This document shows positions 1 through 9,326 of a DNA stretch of 64,000 nt, piece by piece. Position 1 is the first letter of the stretch. Every line of letters starts with the position of its first letter. Source of the stretch: a virus (Duplodnaviria; Caudoviricetes). The stretch lies in the IMG/VR virus record IMGVR_UViG_3300036784_000146, positions 32,001 to 96,000 of that record. One strand, given 5' to 3'. A program made the translations under genes and the position numbers. The notes beneath the pieces are model-generated. The model had not been told where the DNA came from. It made no database searches and worked only from the letters and a program-made list of their open reading frames with translations.

Positions 1-97
1 GTGACCGAGCAGCCCAAGCAGGCCAAGCTGGCGTTCACCGTGGGCTGGTTGACTGAGGAGAGGGTCTAAGGTGCCTTGACGGGTTACCGTTAGGCTC

Positions 98-379
98 ATG
101 CCTCTTGCACACACCAAAGACCTCGACACGCTGGCGGCCTGGGCCGAAGAGCTGGGCTGGGAGCTGATCGAGACCAATCCGCCGATCCTGGTCAAGGCCG
201 GACGGCGCCTGCAGCTGAAGTTCAACGGCGCGGGCAAGATCAACGGCATGAGCTGGACCGGCGGATCTGAGCATGGCGACATGATGTCGGGGGCCTGCAG
301 CTTCCGCCGGGTGCGTGAATGGATGCAGACCGCACTAGACAAGCCACCGCCGACGGATCCCGACGACAATCTCCCCTAG
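98..379 (+). CDS. hypothetical protein (93 aa)
   Basis: ORF with GC3-rich codon usage on the same strand as all neighbours; no recognisable motif. Confidence 0.6.
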   Translation: MPLAHTKDLDTLAAWAEELGWELIETNPPILVKAGRRLQLKFNGAGKINGMSWTGGSEHGDMMSGACSFRRVREWMQTALDKPPPTDPDDNLP

Positions 380-444
380 ACTTTCCTACAATTTTGCCTT
401 AATCTGGGTCCAGCACTGGAATTAACCCGGAAGGTAAACTACAC

Positions 445-744
445 ATGTCTTTCTTGGCAACACTTCCCGCTGACATCGCCGCCACCGCTGGCGGGCTCGC
501 CGGGCTCGGCGCGACCGTTACCGCCGCCCACTCGGCGGCCGCCGGACCGTTGGGGGCTGTCGTTCCTCCGGCGCCGGAGCCGACGTCGATCTTGGCGGCT
601 ATGGCTCACCAGACCCATCACGGCGTCTACCAGGCTGCTGCCAGCGTGGCCGACGCCATCCACGCCATGTTCACCGGAACCATGGGCGTCTCGGGTGTCA
701 CCTATGACCTCGCCGAGGCGGCCACGGCGCTCACGATGTTCTAG
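445..744 (+). CDS. PE family protein (type VII secretion substrate)
   Basis: 99 aa, Ala-rich; MSFLATLPADI N-terminus, VVPPA..E..S segment, YQA..AIH.MF segment and C-terminal YxxxE signal (YDLAE), as in mycobacterial PE proteins; directly upstream of a PPE gene. Confidence 0.9.
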   Translation: MSFLATLPADIAATAGGLAGLGATVTAAHSAAAGPLGAVVPPAPEPTSILAAMAHQTHHGVYQAAASVADAIHAMFTGTMGVSGVTYDLAEAATALTMF

Positions 745-747
745 GCC

Positions 748-1980
748 ATGGACTACGGGGCGGAGCCGCCGGAGGTCAATTCCGGCCGCATGTATGCGGG
801 GGTGGGCAGTGGGCCACTGATGGCGGCAGCAGCTGCCTGGCAAGCCCTGGCCGTCGAGCTGGGGATGTCGGGGGCGGTGTACTCCCAGATGATTGCCAGC
901 CTGCTCGGGTCCTGGATGGGCCCTTCCTCGGCCGCAATGGCTGCCTCCGCCGCTCCTTACGTGGCGTGGATGATTCAGGCCGCCCTGCAGTGCGAGGAGC
1001 ATGCAGTGGCTACTGCGGCCACCGCAGCCTCCTTCGAGACCGCGCTTGCCGGGGTGATTCCGCCGCCGTTGATCGCCGAGAACCGGACCGAGCTGGCCAC
1101 CTTGGTGGCGACCAACTTCCTGGGCGTCAACACTCCGGCGATTGCCGCCAACCAGGCCGAGTACGCCGAGTTCTGGGCTCAGGACTCTTCCACGCTGTAC
1201 AGCTACGCCGGAGAGATGTCGGCCATCCTGGGCGGGCTGATGCCGTTCACGCCGCCGATGCTCAACACCGATCCGGCCGGGCTGGCGGCTCAGGCCGCCG
1301 CCGTCGGCACCGATACCGGGCAGTCAGCCGGACAGGCGGGCCAGACCGTCAGCGGCGTCGGCACCACGATGCCCGGGGCTGCCTCTCCTGCCAGCTCGAT
1401 GCTCGCCGCCGGTCCGTCGATGGTCGGCATGATCCCTCAGGCCCTGCAATCGCTGGCCTCTCCGGCCACCTCGCTGATGAGCGGGGGCGGTCTGTCCAGC
1501 CTCGCCGGGCAGTTCCAGTCGCTGATGGGCCCGTTCATGAGCATGGGCGCGATGGGCTCGTTCACCAACGCTTTCAGTAGCGGCTTGAGTAGCTCGCTGG
1601 GCTCGGGACTCGGCTCGTTGGGCTCTCTGTCGTCCAACGCCAATCTTGGTGGTGGCTATGTCGCCAGCATGGGCCGCGCGGTAGGTGTGGGCGCAGGTCC
1701 CACCAAGCTGTCGGTGCCCGTCTCCTGGGGCCAGACCACCGGCTCCCCTACCAGCCCGTTGATCCGCCCGCTGTTGGCCGCCGAGACCGAGGCCGCACCG
1801 GCGGCCGGTGCGCAGGCGGGGATGATTCCGCCCGGCGTGGGCACCATGGCCGGTGCCGGTCAGCAGCAGGGTGGCACTCCGGGTTTCACAAGCCTTATCC
1901 CAGCCGGGATGAGAGGGAGTCTGGGCAAGGAGGGCGACCCCAATTCCCGTCAACCACAGTTCACCAACTATCTGGTGTGA
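748..1980 (+). CDS. PPE family protein, SVP subfamily
   Basis: MDYGAEPPEVNSGRMYAG N-terminus, WxG motif (SWMGPSS), ATNFLGVNT helical tip, YAEFWAQD, and C-terminal LSVPVSW (SVP motif). Confidence 0.95.
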   Translation: MDYGAEPPEVNSGRMYAGVGSGPLMAAAAAWQALAVELGMSGAVYSQMIASLLGSWMGPSSAAMAASAAPYVAWMIQAALQCEEHAVATAATAASFETALAGVIPPPLIAENRTELATLVATNFLGVNTPAIAANQAEYAEFWAQDSSTLYSYAGEMSAILGGLMPFTPPMLNTDPAGLAAQAAAVGTDTGQSAGQAGQTVSGVGTTMPGAASPASSMLAAGPSMVGMIPQALQSLASPATSLMSGGGLSSLAGQFQSLMGPFMSMGAMGSFTNAFSSGLSSSLGSGLGSLGSLSSNANLGGGYVASMGRAVGVGAGPTKLSVPVSWGQTTGSPTSPLIRPLLAAETEAAPAAGAQAGMIPPGVGTMAGAGQQQGGTPGFTSLIPAGMRGSLGKEGDPNSRQPQFTNYLV

Positions 1981-1995
1981 AAAAGGAGAAACGAA

Positions 1996-2316
1996 ATGAC
2001 TCAGCAGTTTTGGGAGATCACCATCATCGGCGTCCTCGTCGTCCTGATGGTCGGCATCTTCGTGATGGGCAACGTCGTCAACCGTGACCGGTTGAACAAT
2101 GCGCTCAACGATGCCGCAAAAAAGCCCATCGAGTTGCATCAGCAACTGCTGGCGCGCGAAGACGCGGGAGTGAAGGCTCTGGGTATCGTGGCGGATCTGG
2201 TTCAGGAAAACGGCCGACAACTCGCTCACATGCGCGAGGTTGGCGTTCCGGTTATCACCCGCCCGGTGAACGGCCGCGACGAGGCGGTCGTGGTACGAGC
2301 TGCCGTTACAAAGTAG
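1996..2316 (+). CDS. small membrane-anchored protein
   Basis: Strong RBS (AAGGAG); N-terminal hydrophobic helix ITIIGVLVVLMVGIFVMG. Confidence 0.7.
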   Translation: MTQQFWEITIIGVLVVLMVGIFVMGNVVNRDRLNNALNDAAKKPIELHQQLLAREDAGVKALGIVADLVQENGRQLAHMREVGVPVITRPVNGRDEAVVVRAAVTK

Positions 2317-2325
2317 GCGGCGCCG

Positions 2326-2643
2326 ATGACAGCCCAGCGGGTGGTGCTCCCACCACCAACACCACTGGTTCCTGACGGCCAGTGGTGGCTGGTGCTGGAT
2401 CCCGACGGCGTCACGGTCACGCTGGCGATCATGAACGGCACCAACATCGTCGCGTCGGAGGTCGCCGCGATGCCGGGCGGCATGCGCCGGGGCAATTTGA
2501 AAGTGCCCGGCGAGCTGAAGCGGATGGCCGTCGACATCAACAACCGGATCGAGTATCGCGAGTATCTGAGCAAGGAGCTGGGAGGACAGGTCACCGTGGA
2601 ACTCATGCACGTCGGCAACATGGGGATGTGGTCACATGACTAG
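2326..2643 (+). CDS. hypothetical protein (105 aa)
   Basis: Fills the gap in a tight operon and overlaps the next start by 8 nt. Confidence 0.6.
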   Translation: MTAQRVVLPPPTPLVPDGQWWLVLDPDGVTVTLAIMNGTNIVASEVAAMPGGMRRGNLKVPGELKRMAVDINNRIEYREYLSKELGGQVTVELMHVGNMGMWSHD

Positions 2644-3214
2644 TGGCTTCAGCGTCGACCCGAGCCAGCTGTTCGTCGCCGGGAACGGCCACCTGGAATA
2701 CATCGATCAGCTCGGTCAGCTCATCGACTTCGGCCCGGCCCCTAATGACTGGCCCAGCTCGGCCGGGGTGGCGACATCGCGTCAGGGCAAGAACGCCATG
2801 ACATCGGCCATGATGGCCCAGCTGGGTCAGCACGGGGCCACCCTGGGCGCCAACGCCGGGTCCTACGAGGCCCAGGAGGGGGCCAACAAGGCCAAGCTGG
2901 ACACCGGCGGCATGAAGGATATGGCGGGACTGATGACGTCCAGCATGAAGGATGTCGGCGGCCTGGCTACCAACACGTTCAAGGACGTGGAGGGCATCTT
3001 CGGTACCGCCGGTCAGGTCACTGCTGCGGCGGGAGGCAGTCTCGGGGGTGCTGCAGCCTCGGCGTCAGCCTCGTTCATGGGCAAGGTCTCGCCTCCGGCG
3101 TCGACTGCTCATGCCGTGACACCCACCTCGGGCACTCCGGAGTCCGCTGCACCGGCCGGGGCTGACGACGACGGGAGGAAGCACGATGGCACCCACGCTC
3201 AGCAGCATTCGTAA
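2636..3214 (+). CDS. EspC/PE-like type VII secretion target
   Basis: FSVDPSQL N-terminus, ~90 aa helical-hairpin-like domain ending in the YxxxE motif (SYEAQE), then a low-complexity tail. Confidence 0.6.
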   Translation: MTSGFSVDPSQLFVAGNGHLEYIDQLGQLIDFGPAPNDWPSSAGVATSRQGKNAMTSAMMAQLGQHGATLGANAGSYEAQEGANKAKLDTGGMKDMAGLMTSSMKDVGGLATNTFKDVEGIFGTAGQVTAAAGGSLGGAAASASASFMGKVSPPASTAHAVTPTSGTPESAAPAGADDDGRKHDGTHAQQHS

Positions 3215-4196
3215 CTACGACCCGCGCTGGTTGCTGGACGACGCCAGCCACAGCCGCCGGGTGGCCAATGGCTGGACCGACGCCTGGTCCGGTGCCTACA
3301 GCAGCGTCGAGGGGATCCCATGGACCGGCACCGGCAGGGAGGCCGCGCTCGCCGCGCACGGCGCCGACCTCAGCCGGGCGCAATCCCACGCCGCCACTCT
3401 GACCGCTAGCGCCGCGACGACCGAGCAGACCTATCACGACCTCGTCAACGAGCGGGACGCGCTGCTCCGGCAGGTCGACCAGGCGACGAACGAGGGCTAC
3501 CAGGTGACCGAGAGCTTCACCGTGATGCCCGGGCCGAAGATGAAGGGGGCCGAGGTCATCCTGCGCGCGCCGGATATGGCGCAGAAGACCGCCGCGCTGA
3601 CCGAGGCGGCTGGGCAGCTGTTCGCCAACGATGCGGCCGCCGGTGCCGCTGTGGCCGCCCCGGCCGCGACGTTCGCCGACGCGCCGATGGCGGTAGCCCA
3701 CAACGGAGTGCAGCTGGTGGATAAGGTGACCCCGATTCCTTCCCCTGGCGACCTGTCGTCGATCGCGCCGCCCGACATGCCCGATACGTCCGCTCCATTC
3801 TTGGACGGGTACCAGGCCAGCATCGGAGCGACTCCGCCGCAGACCGGGGAGCCCGTGGCACCGATGCCAACCAGCCGTCCGCCGAACGTCCCCAAGGGAG
3901 TGCCGCTCCCGCCGGTCATGACCAAGCCCCCGCCCAACGACGGGGTCTTTGAGCCGGGTCCCGACCCGGGCTTCACCGAGGAGAATCCCAGGACGGGTCC
4001 GGTGCTCGGCGCTGCGGTGATGGGCGGGACATTGGGCTGTGAGACCGGAGCAGGATGGGCGGCCGCCCTTTCGGCCCCGGTGATCCCCGCCGAGGCTATT
4101 GCGGTGCCCGTTGGATGTGCCACCGGAGCTGCCATCGGTGCAGCTCCGCCGTTGCTGTACCCCTGGGTCGACAACTTGTTGGAAGGAGGTGGGTGA
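3186..4196 (+). CDS. WXG100-like-led putative ESX-secreted toxin with glycine-zipper C-terminus
   Basis: N-terminus PTLSSIRNYD...WTGTGREAA...EGYQVTESFTV is typical of mycobacterial T7SS polymorphic-toxin leaders; Pro-rich linker; hydrophobic Gly-zipper C-terminus (GAAVMGGTLGC...GCATGAAIG). Confidence 0.65.
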   Translation: MAPTLSSIRNYDPRWLLDDASHSRRVANGWTDAWSGAYSSVEGIPWTGTGREAALAAHGADLSRAQSHAATLTASAATTEQTYHDLVNERDALLRQVDQATNEGYQVTESFTVMPGPKMKGAEVILRAPDMAQKTAALTEAAGQLFANDAAAGAAVAAPAATFADAPMAVAHNGVQLVDKVTPIPSPGDLSSIAPPDMPDTSAPFLDGYQASIGATPPQTGEPVAPMPTSRPPNVPKGVPLPPVMTKPPPNDGVFEPGPDPGFTEENPRTGPVLGAAVMGGTLGCETGAGWAAALSAPVIPAEAIAVPVGCATGAAIGAAPPLLYPWVDNLLEGGG

Positions 4197-4303
4197 TGCC
4201 CCCGCGCGTGTACCGGTTCTGGAAGCGCTGCCAGCTGGGGACGTTCGAGCTGCTCGTCGCTGCTTCGGCCGTCGGCTGGATCATTCATCTCGTGACGCGG
4301 TGA
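4196..4303 (+). CDS. 35 aa membrane peptide, putative immunity protein
   Basis: ATG overlaps the toxin stop (TGATG) after GGAGG; MPPRVYRFWKRCQLGTFELLVAASAVGWIIHLVTR has a basic N-terminus and one TM helix. Confidence 0.5.
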   Translation: MPPRVYRFWKRCQLGTFELLVAASAVGWIIHLVTR

Positions 4304-4359
4304 AACCTGTCGGTGGGTCGCGTTAGATTCGGTTCGTCAAAGAAAACGGCGCTCTGACG

Positions 4360-4388
4360 TTGGCATTGTAGGAACATTAGGGTAAAGT
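4360..4388 (+). promoter_or_regulatory. SigA-like promoter
   Basis: TTGGCA-17 bp-TAAAGT in an AT-richer intergenic gap upstream of 4438. Confidence 0.6.
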
Positions 4389-4437
4389 TGGAGCCAGTTA
4401 AGCCCGACCGGGGCTTCGAGAAAGGAAGACACACACC

Positions 4438-5619
4438 ATGACCGCAGCAACAGAAGCATTCCCCACCCGCGTAGACCGCGAGCGGGACGTCCGGAAGGTC
4501 CTGGACTACCTCAACCAGCAGCAAACCATCAAGCGCGACTTCGTCGTCCCGGCCTCGGTGCTCAGCTTCGACATCGGCGATATGATCGTCGACGCCGCCA
4601 ACCTCGTGATGGACGAGGAGGGTGTCACCGACGTCAACGGCCGCTACGAGCTGTCCGGCCACGCGCTGAACCAGCTCGCCGACATCTTCAAGATTCCCGG
4701 CCGCTACCTCAAGCGCTGCCGCTCGGAGAAGGTGTCGCTGTTCGACGCCAACCTGAACGGGTGGGTCGAGGAAGATGCGCGCTCGTTCCTCCTGCGGACC
4801 TTCGTGCACAACGCCGAGGACCGCAACTACCTGCGGGCGATCCTGTCCAACGGCTACGGGATCATGGACAACATCGACGTCCTGATGTCGGCCATCCAGG
4901 GTCTGGCTCAGGTGCAGCTGCCCAGCGGTGGGTTCCTGGGGCCGCAGAACATCCGCGACATCCAGGTGACCGAGTCCCGCCTGTACATCCGGGTCGAGGC
5001 TCCCGAGATCACAGCCGTCGGCGGCGAGTACGTCAAGGGCCTGCGCAGCCCCTTCCGGGGTACCGGCCACGGTGGGGTCTCCGCCGAGCACCCCGAGCTG
5101 GTGCACGCCGGGTTCGTCATCACCAACTCCGAGGTGGGTGACGGTGCCTTCAACGCTACCGGCGAGGTGATCGCGAAGGTCTGCGACAACGGCGCCCAGA
5201 TGCGCGACAGCCGGATCCGCAAGGTCCACGTCGGCGAGCGGTTGGACCACGGTCACATCAAGTGGTCGGCGGACACCCAGGCGGCCGAGGTCAAGGCCAT
5301 GCAGCTGAAGGTGCGCGATGCCTTCACCTCCTTCCTGACGGTCGAATGGTTGGAGGAAGCGGTGGCCAAGCTGAACAAGGACGCCGGACACCCGGTGGAG
5401 GACGTTCAGAAGACCATCGAGGTGGTCTCCAACCAGCTGCAGTTCAACCAGGACGAGCAGGCCGCCATCATGCGGATGTTCTTCGACGGTGGCCAGCGGA
5501 CCTCCGGCGGGGTGGCGAACGCCATCACGGCTGCCGCCCAGACCATCGAGGATGCCGATCGGGCGAACTACTTCACCGAGGTGGCCGTCGACGCGATGAA
5601 GATTGCCGCCACGGTGTAA
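4438..5619 (+). CDS. DUF932-like phage protein
   Basis: LRAILSNGY...DN and GFVITNSEVGDG...KVCDNG motifs match the DUF932/DUF945 pattern; strong RBS. Confidence 0.65.
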   Translation: MTAATEAFPTRVDRERDVRKVLDYLNQQQTIKRDFVVPASVLSFDIGDMIVDAANLVMDEEGVTDVNGRYELSGHALNQLADIFKIPGRYLKRCRSEKVSLFDANLNGWVEEDARSFLLRTFVHNAEDRNYLRAILSNGYGIMDNIDVLMSAIQGLAQVQLPSGGFLGPQNIRDIQVTESRLYIRVEAPEITAVGGEYVKGLRSPFRGTGHGGVSAEHPELVHAGFVITNSEVGDGAFNATGEVIAKVCDNGAQMRDSRIRKVHVGERLDHGHIKWSADTQAAEVKAMQLKVRDAFTSFLTVEWLEEAVAKLNKDAGHPVEDVQKTIEVVSNQLQFNQDEQAAIMRMFFDGGQRTSGGVANAITAAAQTIEDADRANYFTEVAVDAMKIAATV

Positions 5620-5627
5620 CAACTTGG

Positions 5628-5726
5628 CCCCGGTGGGCTGCTGCCCGACACCCACCGGGGTCAATACCACACAACCCGAAGACCACCCCCGCGAGCCCTT
5701 CCTTCCCGAACTCGCGGGGGTCTTCG
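5628..5726 (+). terminator. two GC-rich hairpins after the DUF932-like gene
   Basis: CCCCGGTGGG/CCCACCGGGG and CGAAGAC..CCCCCGCGAG/CTCGCGGGGGTCTTCG inverted repeats. Confidence 0.5.
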
Positions 5727-5765
5727 TGTATCTGAGCCCTTCTCGGCCCTAAAAGGGTGGAGGAG
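5727..5765 (+). promoter_or_regulatory. bipartite TGT-N22-AAAGGG motif, copy 1 (putative late promoter)
   Basis: TGTA at 5727, AAAGGGTGGAGGAG from 5752. Confidence 0.55.
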
Positions 5766-5770
5766 GCATC

Positions 5771-6463
5771 ATGCAATTCACCGGCTCATTGGCCCGTGAG
5801 GCCGATCTGACCAACCGGCGGCTGGCGCAAGAGGCCCAGAAATTCCGTGAGGGCCGTGACGACTGGTTCGACGGCACCCCGGCATCGACCGACCGGCGCA
5901 TCTCAGCCTGCCAGCGTGTGCTTCACAGCGCCCGCAGCGCGCGGGCCCGCAGCCCCTTCGACTGGGAACCCCAGCAGATCATCGCCGAGCTGGAAGAGGA
6001 CCTGCGCGCCTTGGTCGGCCAGCGCGAGGACCTGCTCAGCGGTTACCAGGATCGCAAGGCCGCGTTGCCCTGGGGGAAGTCCGACGAGGAGCGAGAGGAG
6101 GAAAAACGCCAGCGCGAACACTGGCGGCAAGAAGACGGCCAAAGGGTGCGCCGTGGCTTGGAGCAGGCTTACGGTCGTCCCCGGGCGGCAGCCATCGACG
6201 ACGACGAGCTGCGCTGGGCTCACCTGGAAGCGCCCAAGTTCCTGCGCGCCAATCTCGACGTCGTCCACTATCGTGACGAGCTGGCCACTCGTGCCCAGCA
6301 CTGGGCGCAGAAGATGGCTTCCGGATTCGATCATCCAGCTGAGACCACCCGGGTCTTCGTGGGCGCGGTCGTCGAAGCAGCCCGCGCGGTGCCTTTCCAG
6401 CCGCCGATGCAGGTAGCTCATACGATTGACTTCGATCTCGACCCTGCGGCGATGTGGCTGTGA
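5771..6463 (+). CDS. hypothetical protein (230 aa), possibly head-associated
   Basis: ORF after the motif and RBS; contains RKAA and RPRAAA motifs like the head proteins. Confidence 0.65.
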   Translation: MQFTGSLAREADLTNRRLAQEAQKFREGRDDWFDGTPASTDRRISACQRVLHSARSARARSPFDWEPQQIIAELEEDLRALVGQREDLLSGYQDRKAALPWGKSDEEREEEKRQREHWRQEDGQRVRRGLEQAYGRPRAAAIDDDELRWAHLEAPKFLRANLDVVHYRDELATRAQHWAQKMASGFDHPAETTRVFVGAVVEAARAVPFQPPMQVAHTIDFDLDPAAMWL

Positions 6464-6945
6464 GAAGTTGGCTGCAAATTCTCTACCCGAACGCCACCCA
6501 ACTGGGATGGAGACCCGTCCGGTTCCAGCCGTTCCTTATGGTGGCCATGTTCGTCGGTGGCGTCATCTTGATTTACGCCAACTTCGATCCGGACTTGTCG
6601 CCACACTTCGCCCAGGACCGAGGCTTGGGTCTGGTGCCCGGCCTGTGGCTGGCTATGTTGGTAACCACCCCGGTGCTGGCGCTGGTGTCTTCGGCCCTGA
6701 TATTCAAGGGCCGGGGGCGCAACGTGCGTACTTTAGGCCTGGGCTTGAGGCTGGCCGCAGACATCACCTCCGCCACGACGCTGTGGTCTTACATCATTGC
6801 TCGCCTGACCGTCGAGACCTACGTGATGTCCGGCAGCCTGTTGGTCGCCGTTGGCTTGTTCTCCTTCGCCATCGTGCTTCGCGATATTTTGGCCCTCTCC
6901 GAGGAACGCAAACGGCTGCAGTTGTGGGAGGAACTGCGTTCATGA
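6454..6945 (+). CDS. 4-TM membrane protein, holin-like
   Basis: Four hydrophobic segments; lies in the lysis region upstream of LysB. Confidence 0.6.
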   Translation: MAVRSWLQILYPNATQLGWRPVRFQPFLMVAMFVGGVILIYANFDPDLSPHFAQDRGLGLVPGLWLAMLVTTPVLALVSSALIFKGRGRNVRTLGLGLRLAADITSATTLWSYIIARLTVETYVMSGSLLVAVGLFSFAIVLRDILALSEERKRLQLWEELRS

Positions 6946-7310: not shown

Positions 7311-7799
7311 ATGACCGCACCCGATCCGGCTTGGGTTGTCCAGCAACAGGTATTCCCTCCCGGCCCGCAGCCGCCGGACGCCATCACCATGTACGACGGC
7401 GCTGTGCAGGCCAAGAACGGCTTCGGGCCGTGGAAGGCTTGGGACCTCCGGGGCTGGCTGAACCGGCTCGTCTGGGACCTGCTGCGGTTCCAGACCATCG
7501 ACTCCGGCAAGCCCAACGCCGACCGCACCGTCCCCTACGGCCTGCGCGACAGCGTCAGCGCGATCTGGTACCTCACCGACCAGAACAACCAGCTGCTGAA
7601 GGCCATCGCCACCAAGGTCGGCGCCGACACCACTCACCTGGTGATGGCCCAGAAGGACGTGCAGGAGGCCGCGCTGGCCAACGAGGCCTTCGTCGCCTCG
7701 GTGCGTGAGCACCTGACCGCGATGGAGGACACCCTCAGGGCCAGCGGTGTCGTCAACCCCGGGCTGCTGCGGCAGGCCGGTCTGCACGTGGTGCTCTGA
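7311..7799 (+). CDS. hypothetical protein in the lysis cassette
   Basis: Strong RBS AGGAGG; no catalytic motif seen. Confidence 0.65.
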   Translation: MTAPDPAWVVQQQVFPPGPQPPDAITMYDGAVQAKNGFGPWKAWDLRGWLNRLVWDLLRFQTIDSGKPNADRTVPYGLRDSVSAIWYLTDQNNQLLKAIATKVGADTTHLVMAQKDVQEAALANEAFVASVREHLTAMEDTLRASGVVNPGLLRQAGLHVVL

Positions 7800-7800
7800 C

Positions 7801-8739
7801 ATGCCGGGCCCCATGCTCGTCACGGTCAACGGGACCGGCGTTCCGGATCCGTTTGGGCCGGGCTTCTCCGGCGATCTCGGCCGGGCGTTGACCAATCCCT
7901 GGAACGGCATCGCCGCCCAGTTCTGGGGACAGGGTGCCGACCAGGCCTACGGCAGGTTCATTTTCTGGCAACCGATCGGCTATCCGGCGGGCGTCTTCCC
8001 GATGAACCCGTCGGTCAATACCGGTGTCGCCGAGGTCAGCCGCCAGGTCACCTTGCACGAGGCCGACGGCAGTTGCCCGCCCGGCTACCCGCTGTTCCTC
8101 TCGGGGTACTCGCAGGGCGCTTTGGTGACGAATGTGTTCTGGCGTGATTTCGTGTTAAACCCCAACGGGCCACACAACAACCGGCTGAACGACATCGTGG
8201 ACCTGGGCGGCATCATCAACTTCGGGGACCCGATGGCCTGTCCCGGGGTGTACAACGGCAACATCGCCGCCGGGTTCGCCAAGCCCAAGCTCCTGGACGG
8301 TGTCATCCCCGGCGGCATCGCCGGACCGGGATGCCTGACCCCGGCGCAGACCCCTGATTGCCTACTGACGTGCGGACTGGACGGGGACCTCTATGGTGCC
8401 GCGCCGGTCGGACCGGCCAGCCTGCCGGTCTTACCTACCGGGGCCCCTTGGGTCAAAGAGCCCCTGGTCGGCCAGATCGAGACCCGCATCTATGGCTTCA
8501 TCGAGAGCGGCTCGATATTGACCGGCCTCATGGCCGTCGCCGAGGGTGTGGCCCAGGAGTTCGAGCAGCCGCTGTCCAACACGATCGCCCTGGTGCACGC
8601 CATCTTCAACGGCATGGGCTTTGCGGCCCAAGGAACAAACGCACCGCACTGGCGTTATCAGGGATTTATCCCTCCCATGGTCGGTTGGATCATCAGGCGG
8701 GCCCAGACTTCGATGGCTCGGATCGCGGCGGCCGCCTGA
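7801..8739 (+). CDS. lysB: Lysin B (mycolylarabinogalactan esterase, cutinase fold)
   Basis: TVNGTGVPDPFGPG...WQPIGYPAGVFPMNPSVNTGVAE...GYSQGA...FGDPM closely parallels D29 LysB; nucleophile motif GYSQG at 8104-8118. Confidence 0.9.
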   Translation: MPGPMLVTVNGTGVPDPFGPGFSGDLGRALTNPWNGIAAQFWGQGADQAYGRFIFWQPIGYPAGVFPMNPSVNTGVAEVSRQVTLHEADGSCPPGYPLFLSGYSQGALVTNVFWRDFVLNPNGPHNNRLNDIVDLGGIINFGDPMACPGVYNGNIAAGFAKPKLLDGVIPGGIAGPGCLTPAQTPDCLLTCGLDGDLYGAAPVGPASLPVLPTGAPWVKEPLVGQIETRIYGFIESGSILTGLMAVAEGVAQEFEQPLSNTIALVHAIFNGMGFAAQGTNAPHWRYQGFIPPMVGWIIRRAQTSMARIAAAA

Positions 8740-9326
8740 TGCGGTTCCTCCCTGTTCTACTGGGGTTGTTTGCTGCGTTCTGTCTGGGGATCGCTCCCGC
8801 GCACGCCAACATCGGTGGCAGCGTGCCCAGCCCGGGCGAGTGCGACTACCCCGGCGTCGGTACGTTCGGCGCCGCCTTCGGTGAATACGACGCGGGCTGT
8901 GCCTTTCCTACCGAGATCAACGGCAGTCACTGGCAGCTGCTTTACGGCGGCGGGATGTGGTCGGTGCAGGCCGGGGTGGGTTTCAGCCTGGCCGTCACTT
9001 TGAATTTCCAGGTCAACTCGCCCGCCGGTGTACTGCGCGGGATCACTTACTGGGCCTGCCCGGATCTCTCCATGGCCGAGCCCCCCAACCCACCGGGGGC
9101 CTGGAACCAGCACATCACCCCTTCCCCGTGCAAGACGGTCGCTCCCCGGCCGGTGCTACTGCGCGACGAGCCCCCGCCTCCACCCTTCGGGGTTCCCCCG
9201 CCTCCGCCGCCTCCTGCCGATATTGAGCCGCCGCTTCCCGCCGGTCCTCCGATGACCCCTCAGACCGGGGCCCAGACCAACCCCACCCCGGGTAATCCGG
9301 TGGCTCCCGACAGTCCCCGCCGTTAA
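8739..9326 (+). CDS. secreted Cys-containing protein with Pro-rich tail
   Basis: Sec signal MRFLPVLLGLFAAFCLGIAPAHA (AxA site); start overlaps the lysB stop. Confidence 0.65.
   Translation: MRFLPVLLGLFAAFCLGIAPAHANIGGSVPSPGECDYPGVGTFGAAFGEYDAGCAFPTEINGSHWQLLYGGGMWSVQAGVGFSLAVTLNFQVNSPAGVLRGITYWACPDLSMAEPPNPPGAWNQHITPSPCKTVAPRPVLLRDEPPPPPFGVPPPPPPPADIEPPLPAGPPMTPQTGAQTNPTPGNPVAPDSPRR

Follow-up and report, generated by a model that had tools for sequence, protein, structure and literature searches.

A probable PEST-type toxin cassette with a candidate glycine-zipper payload in the genome of an uncultured myovirus

Introduction

Phage-encoded toxin cassettes directed to the ESX secretion machinery of mycobacteria have been described as polymorphic toxin-immunity (PT-Imm) or PEST (for phage-encoded ESX-secreted toxins) cassettes (Dedrick et al. 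2021, PMC8092301; Abad et al. 2023, PMC10654092). For PEST1 and PEST2, heterodimers resembling PE25/PPE41 were predicted and toxicity was relieved by the gene lying downstream, and reports of PESTs come almost exclusively from M. abscessus-chelonae complex prophages (PMC10654092). The toxins TspA, TelE and EsxX of type VIIb secretion systems (T7SSb) have glycine-zipper ends that are membrane-depolarising and are accompanied by dedicated immunity proteins, some of them membrane proteins and some soluble, with genes located nearby (PMC10434224, PMC12744356). Here we analyse a window of 64,000 nucleotides, corresponding to bases 32001-96000 of the 143,610-bp IMG/VR record IMGVR_UViG_3300036784_000146, in which three overlapping genes at window positions 2636-4303, named g192, g336 and g35, probably form a PEST-type cassette, with a putative ESX-exported pair of helper and carrier, a candidate membrane-active glycine-zipper payload and g35 as the possible protector.

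Gene content of the cassette

The cassette genes and the regions of g336 are listed below, GC3 being the G + C content at third codon positions and TM standing for transmembrane:

2636..3214, plus strand: g192, helper/partner of 192 aa, EspC-like residues 1-88 followed by an extension
3186..4196, plus strand: g336, whole gene, 336 aa, WxG leader, proline-rich linker and glycine-zipper tip
3186..3665, plus strand: g336 residues 1-160, putative WxG-containing secretion (carrier) domain, PPE-like
3666..3980, plus strand: g336 residues 161-265, proline-rich linker (24% Pro)
3981..4196, plus strand: g336 residues 266-336, candidate membrane-inserting toxin domain
4196..4303, plus strand: g35, 35-aa single-TM peptide, immunity candidate (TGATG overlap, GC3 0.86)

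A preliminary description of this window had taken 2636-4303 for three overlapping genes, namely an EspC/PE-like gene, a gene combining a WTG leader, a Pro-rich linker and a Gly-zipper tip with two Cys, and a gene for a TM peptide coupled by TGATG, and all of these elements were recovered and located. The start of g192 overlaps an upstream 105-aa gene by 8 nt, that of g336 overlaps g192 by 29 nt, and the ATG of g35 overlaps the TGA of g336 (TGATG; GGGTGATGC). GC3 is coding-like in all three genes and every frame is intact. Full-length homologues of g192 and g336 were found at identities as low as 37-47%, those of g336 being 84, 64, 47 and 41% identical with invariant motif residues. The existence of these homologues, the conservation of the motif residues and the coding-like GC3 of g35 indicate that the genes are real and not chance open reading frames (ORFs).

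The same properties bear on the idea that the cassette has no function in this phage and is a passenger (moron) in decay. Such an idea is in line with the accessory nature of the cassette: g192, g336 and the PE/PPE gene pair lying upstream have no match in isolated phages (megablast and tblastn), and the nearest isolated phages lack the cassette. Against it stand the intact frames, the full-length homologues with invariant motif residues, the coding-like GC3 of all three genes and the retention of the same block in a second phage, which together make a functionless passenger extremely improbable.

The g336 leader and its polymorphic family

The WxG motif of g336 is W46-T-G48 (3321-3329); all of 150 leader sequences have G48 and nearly all have W46. 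With a g336 profile, exhaustive HMMER searching (cut-off E <= 1e-3) retrieved 432 proteins of 143-643 aa, nearly all of which match residues 1-160 only, while word-based search identified three close homologues (P0002, 84%; P0003, 64%; P0004, 47%), all with the same tip. Among 148 leader relatives, the C-terminal ends recognised by Pfam include Ntox28 (3e-32), TNT (1e-26) and GH-E (9e-16), as well as GmrSD_C, HNH_4 and Abhydrolase_8. The preliminary description had envisaged the same leader with swapped C-termini, and the 432 matches, with Ntox28, TNT, GH-E and HNH among their ends, bear this out. The leader was present in 175 of 401 sampled Mycobacteriaceae genomes, as counted with a profile that was intended for the tip and absorbed N-terminal columns, and hence measured the leader; it also occurs in named Mycobacterium and Mycolicibacterium genomes, and the family is mostly chromosomal or prophage-borne. 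Scans of viral, metagenome and genome contigs with the g336 alignment, and likewise with an alignment of P0013 and P0016, gave no related loci.

The assignment to the PEST type derives from the links between this leader and genes that are annotated as 'polymorphic toxin' in M. abscessus prophages. One member of the leader family, P0061, matches by tblastn the genes annotated 'polymorphic toxin protein' of prophiGD43A-1 (gp117) and CCUG48898T-2 (gp109), with E values of 5e-9 and 2e-7, and also matches Dori gp88. In prophiGD43A-1 the order is gp118 ('ESX complex protein'), the toxin gp117, then small genes. Profile comparison with hhalign aligned g336 with gp117 (E 5e-5, probability 67.5%, WxG in register) and g192 with gp118 (E 1.3e-4). 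The kinship to prophage ESX toxin/immunity cassettes proposed earlier was thus found again, and the locus has the upstream helper gene, the homologous WxG leader and the polymorphic C-termini of PEST cassettes.

Nothing significant was found for g336, g192 or g35 in Pfam, PHROGs, NCBIfam and PADLOC. More specifically, g336 lies below the gathering thresholds of PPE (PF00823) and WXG100 (PF06013), with no match to either at E <= 0.1, and has no meaningful match in the PDB by sequence; among the 148 leader relatives, four match PPE and two match WXG100 weakly, both at about 1e-4. The AlphaFold2 (AF2) model of the leader (pLDDT 60-95) consists of a helix, the WxG turn, a long helix, a beta hairpin and a helix, with the turn at residues 43-48 between helices 15-42 and 49-102. 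Its best Foldseek match in the PDB is PPE4 (probability 0.9, E 0.27), the VIA Z values to PPE4/PPE15 are 8.6-8.7 for leader residues 1-171, and a search of BFVD gave one unnamed match. This fold evidence is consistent with PPE-likeness and is not decisive.

Between helices 2 and 3, leader residues 105-115 (3498-3530) correspond to the short beta hairpin G-[FY]-x-V-x-E-D-[LF]-x-V, which is the most conserved leader element after WxG (V107 is nearly invariant in the 150 sequences). By analogy with the EspG-binding end of PPE, it may be a tip that binds a chaperone or the secretion machine.

A separate observation concerns three loci at which the leader relative has a common Pro-rich, non-hydrophobic C-terminus. 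These relatives are each followed by homologous soluble proteins of ~135-140 aa (L002:5896-6318, L003:6294-6698 and L030:2749-3165) sharing a LRTIRSLL-DGL motif, which are likely an immunity family.

The helper g192

A single YxxxD/E motif, YEAQE, is found in g192 at residues 77-81 (2864-2878), and its Y77 and E81 are invariant across four g192 homologues. Nearly all of ~40 leader relatives in Mycobacterium genomes are directly preceded by an ORF of ~97 aa with YxxxD/E near residue 77, separated from the leader gene by 0-2 nt or overlapping it by 4 nt. Pfam T7SS_ESX_EspC (PF10824) is matched weakly by five of 12 such helpers (best E 7e-4), and g192 itself lies below the gathering threshold of this family, with no match at E <= 0.1. 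When a g192 profile of four sequences was compared with the 12 upstream partners using hhalign, residues 3-88 of g192 aligned with partner residues 7-93, Tyr on Tyr (probability 91.9%, E 6.8e-7). As judged from this alignment, g192 is a ~97-aa EspC-like helper with a 100-residue extension, its 192 aa being about twice the usual helper length. Taken together, the YxxxD/E of g192 and the WxG in a predicted helical turn of g336 correspond to the two parts of a composite signal of type VIIa secretion systems (T7SSa).

The extension includes three [MF]KDxxG[LI] repeats spaced by exactly 11 residues (residues 93-121; 2912-2998) and an acidic, His-rich tail; chromosomal relatives have ~97-aa helpers that lack the repeat-bearing extension. 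A periodicity of 11 residues is typical of lipid-binding amphipathic helices, and the extension might serve in the shielding or delivery of the hydrophobic toxin tip. AF2 predicted helices at residues 9-31 and 42-121, but with a pLDDT of 45; folded as single chains, both partners come out as helical hairpins.

The linker and the glycine-zipper tip

The linker is predicted to be disordered (AF2 pLDDT < 35) and its sequence varies among homologues. The tip, residues 266-336 (71 residues; 18% Gly, 21% Ala), is laid out as an ENP motif, a zipper, a PAE turn, a second zipper and a terminal NLLEGGG. Its two GxxxGxxxG motifs, at 280 and 310 (GGTLGCETG and GCATGAAIG), contain one Cys each, and these are the only two Cys of the tip: Cys285 (4038-4040) and Cys311 (4116-4118), 13 residues either side of the PAE turn.

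The last ~90 residues of g336 behave as a conserved module with an (A/T)E(E/Q/K)NP start, G-C-x-x-G in both zippers, the P-A-E turn and the end N-x-x-x-G-x-G. This module stands behind a different leader and linker in P0013 and P0016, occurs also in the metagenome-assembled genome locus L004 and in a second phage (P0009), and is found as fragments in P0014 and P0053. By this distribution, the tip is a separate, conserved and modular domain. A tip-only profile (12 candidates scored per genome) detected it, at borderline level, in one of the 401 Mycobacteriaceae genomes. Structure comparison with the ESM Atlas placed the tip near Gly-zipper_YMGG/Omp families (TM-score 0.57-0.68), taken as a lead only.

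A hydrophobic end of this kind could also be a plain membrane anchor. Under that explanation, which we regard as unlikely, g336 would be an ESX-exported envelope protein, anchored by its zipper hairpin, that remodels the envelope together with the PE/PPE proteins, for example so that superinfecting phages are excluded, and g35 would be an unrelated small membrane protein. Some relatives (L038, L042) indeed have a plain TM-like tail. Bona fide toxin domains nevertheless occupy the same C-terminal position in the leader family, the conserved two-Cys module is more elaborate than an anchor would be, and no PADLOC defence model matched.

A reading of the locus as a defence system was considered and ranked low.

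Elsewhere in the family, many relatives have a Gly/Ala-rich hydrophobic end with one Cys on either side (C-x40-50-C), as observed at loci L007, L009, L014, L015 and L021 and in proteins P0011, P0032, P0049, P0057, P0073, P0082 and P0104. The pattern of these sequences suggests that glycine-zipper payloads closed by a disulfide are a widespread class among the T7SSa toxins of mycobacteria.

The downstream peptide g35

The g35 peptide has a basic N-terminus followed by one hydrophobic helix of ~20 residues. Its GC3 of 0.86 can be compared with windows of 35 codons, for which the values are 0.86 +/- 0.09 in coding and 0.56 +/- 0.15 in non-coding frames, GC3 exceeding 0.886 in fewer than 1% of the non-coding-frame windows. 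A GGAGG is present at 4185-4189, 6 nt upstream of g35; the same letters also encode E-G-G at the conserved toxin end, which makes them weaker evidence for a ribosome-binding site than they appear.

A small protein with 1-4 TM helices is encoded next downstream in 11 of 11 relatives with Gly-rich hydrophobic tips and in 3 of 12 relatives with other tips (Fisher p = 3e-4 with manual classification; automatic classification of tips and downstream genes is noisier and gave p = 0.09), frequently with a 4-nt overlap. No sequence similarity was seen between g35 and these small TM ORFs downstream of relatives, and no relative of g35 was detectable. An immunity role of g35 is plausible by its position, its coupling, its coding signature and analogy. 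That g35 is not conserved would fit the envelope explanation, against which stands the systematic occurrence of Gly-zipper-type tips ahead of small TM proteins, a toxin-immunity pattern.

The host phage and the gene string

The 143.6-kb record is 96% complete (CheckV) and encodes a portal, a tail sheath, a tape measure and a LysB-like esterase. The portal shares 58% identity with its counterparts in the Mycobacterium phages Phrappuccino and Settecandela, and 53% with those of cluster C myoviruses. Judged by tail sheath and portal, the host is a myovirus, as in the preliminary description, and its relationship is to clusters AA/C. The record yielded no integrase of either the tyrosine or the serine type. 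PEST cassettes are typically carried by temperate phages or prophages, next to the attachment junction, and expressed in lysogeny, features that are typical of them rather than strictly defining; the present cassette is phage-borne, integrase was not found, and it is located between early-looking genes and the lysis/structural region. The affiliation to the AA/C lineage and the integrase result argue for a role during infection and not in lysogeny only. The integrase result also lends some weight to the envelope explanation, a competition toxin expressed in lysogens being less obviously useful here.

The cassette ends a string of seven plus-strand genes, from a PE gene through g35 (445-4303), separated by gaps of at most 15 nt or overlapping. 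The remaining features of the string and its surroundings are:

363..392, plus strand: promoter-like site ACGACA-18-TACAAT (9/12; consensus match only), upstream of the string
445..744, plus strand: PE protein of 99 aa, whose gene opens the string (Pfam PE, E 1.1e-12)
748..1980, plus strand: PPE protein, 410 aa (Pfam PPE, E 2.2e-54)
1996..2316, plus strand: 106-aa protein with one N-terminal TM helix (maximal Kyte-Doolittle hydropathy over 19 residues, KD19, 2.76 at residues 10-28)
2326..2643, plus strand: 105-aa soluble protein (g105), weakly similar to the gene in the same position at L050:5103-5423
4360..4388, plus strand: promoter-like site TTGGCA-17-TAAAGT, in the 134-nt gap of 53% GC that ends the string
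7747..8739: LysB-like esterase, 3.4 kb downstream of the cassette

The two promoter-like sites lie at the two ends of the string and nowhere else in it, and no terminator-like site was found within 1-6000; with the operon-like packing, this upholds the earlier view that the cassette forms one string with PE/PPE. The PPE gene is the sole one in the 143.6-kb record, and a tblastn search of 50,697 records of isolated phages gave no match to it. The 106-aa and 105-aa proteins have no significant match in the four family databases named above. A speculative role for the 105-aa protein is that of a cytoplasmic accessory, chaperone or neutraliser, by analogy with ExiAB, which give soluble immunity to EsxX where ExiCD act at the membrane.

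The second phage carrying the tip was reached from P0009 and corresponds to contig IMGVR_UViG_3300047160_006104 (113,757 bp; G406, locus L050). Its genes encode, in this order, PE, PPE, a protein of 89 aa, a g105-like protein, a helper of 194 aa and a toxin of 280 aa with the same tip as g336, and a 43-aa ORF follows. The PE homologue lies at L050:3119-3415, the PPE of G406 is 47% identical to the PPE of the window, and the 105-aa protein matches L050:5103-5423 by BLASTP (E 3e-4, 29% identity); the 106-aa protein was not found in G406. When all window ORFs were searched by tblastn against G406, only PE, PPE, g192, g336, LysB and one secreted protein gave matches, and no structural gene matched. 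The shared block and the lack of a structural gene match argue that the cassette moves between unrelated phages with PE/PPE attached. This joint travel with PE/PPE in two unrelated phages is also what the envelope explanation would lead one to expect.

LysB is flanked in the window by a four-TM protein (6454-6945) and by a Pro-rich secreted protein with a Sec signal (8739-9326), part of which is shared with G406 (tblastn E 2e-11).

The proximity of the lysis genes raises the question whether the cassette is a lysis accessory, in which g336 would be holin-like or mycomembrane-disrupting and timed with LysB, and g35 antiholin-like. The LysB-like esterase 3.4 kb downstream, the multi-TM protein at 6454-6945 and the inclusion of LysB among the few genes common to G406 are in its favour. 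In G406, however, lysB lies at about 82 kb, on the other strand and ~9 kb away from the cassette (about 69-73 kb); the leader family is mostly chromosomal or prophage-borne and includes enzymatic toxin ends; and a holin would have no need of a T7SS leader and a helper. A lysis function is accordingly considered very unlikely.

A wider reading takes the whole string 445-4303 as one mobile 'ESX cargo' operon, which would hop between unrelated mycobacteriophages, integrase-less ones included, with the PE/PPE proteins providing passage across, or display at, the mycomembrane. It would act in an attack during the lytic cycle, the infected cell depolarising neighbouring mycobacteria or blocking superinfecting phages while g35 protects it. 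We hold this wider reading to be improbable as a whole; if it were true, no smaller immunity protein than g35 would be known for any T7SS toxin.

Proposed mode of action

For the PEST-type cassette as such, we infer a heterodimer, ESX export, a disulfide, membrane activity and immunity through g35, in the following manner. g192 and residues 1-~160 of g336 would form a PE/PPE-like helical heterodimer, in which the YxxxE of g192, placed beside the WxG of g336, would provide the composite signal for the ESX (type VIIa) system of the host. The proline-rich linker would carry the 71-residue payload, a proposed helical hairpin of two glycine zippers, and Cys285 and Cys311, on either side of the turn, would probably form a disulfide staple outside the cytoplasm. 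The hairpin would then insert into a cytoplasmic membrane and dissipate it, as do the ends of TspA, TelE and EsxX in Firmicutes, and the translationally coupled g35 would be the most likely protector of the producing cell.

Several observations weigh against this scheme. PPE/Esx folds score no better as matches to the leader than unrelated helical bundles, BAR domains and designed bundles, and the confidence of the g192 model is low, as is that of the tip (pLDDT < 35). The tip has no Pfam match even at E <= 10, glycine-zipper families included; it is only moderately hydrophobic (KD19 maximum 1.64), and a Glu is present in one of its zippers. Concerning immunity, g35 could not be aligned with the 43-aa (L050) or 76-aa (L004) ORF that follows homologous toxins, and immunity genes of glycine-zipper toxins can be distant and their products soluble, TipE being encoded by the third gene downstream (PMC10434224).

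The tip defines a candidate, as yet unnamed family of toxin domains, in which a conserved ENP leads into a double glycine zipper with a predicted Cys staple. Many leader relatives have Gly-rich membrane-type ends followed by small TM proteins, so that membrane-targeting T7SSa toxins may be common in mycobacteria, like those of T7SSb among Firmicutes. The presence of PE/PPE together with the toxin pair in two unrelated uncultured phages makes a functional link between PE/PPE and toxin export testable, and g35, if it protects, would offer a minimal model of a single TM helix neutralising a pore-forming hairpin.

Comparison with known systems

The closest described systems are the PEST cassettes, for example gp118-gp117-gp116 of prophiGD43A-1, which has the same order of a helper, a WxG toxin with linker and variable end, and a small gene. 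Leader and helper are homologous, and export is predicted to be PE/PPE-like in both cases. PESTs are located in prophages next to an attachment junction, whereas the present cassette belongs to a ~144-kb AA/C-related myovirus in which integrase was not found. It further differs by a 192-aa helper with a 100-residue extension of 11-mer repeats, by a toxin end that is an unnamed two-Cys double glycine zipper, by an immunity candidate of only 35 aa, and by being joined to a PE/PPE pair in one string.

The T7SSb toxins TspA, TelE and EsxX resemble g336 in combining a T7SS leader with a helical glycine-zipper end, and can serve by analogy as a functional model for the tip. They have an LXG domain, for which g336 has no Pfam match, and Lap helpers, whereas an actinobacterial PPE/WxG-like leader and an EspC-like helper are found here, and the Cys pair and PAE turn are specific to the family of g336.

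With the PE25/PPE41 and EspC/EspA pairs, the locus shares a small partner with YxxxD/E, a larger one with WxG, and adjacent overlapping genes with the helper first; a helical hairpin or bundle is predicted as for the PE25/PPE41 type, and the best structural matches over the full domain include PPE4 and PPE15. It differs from these pairs in that g336 falls below Pfam PPE/WXG100 and g192 has no direct T7SS_ESX_EspC match.

Finally, the chromosomal mycobacterial loci L006, L009, L014, L017 and L021 agree with the cassette in leader family and helper. Their hydrophobic ends are Gly-rich and either contain two Cys or are bracketed by them, and the gene overlapping them downstream encodes a small multi-TM protein. 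The tips of these loci are of other sequence types than that of g336, and their downstream proteins have 63-231 aa and 1-4 TM helices, compared with the 35 aa and single helix of g35.

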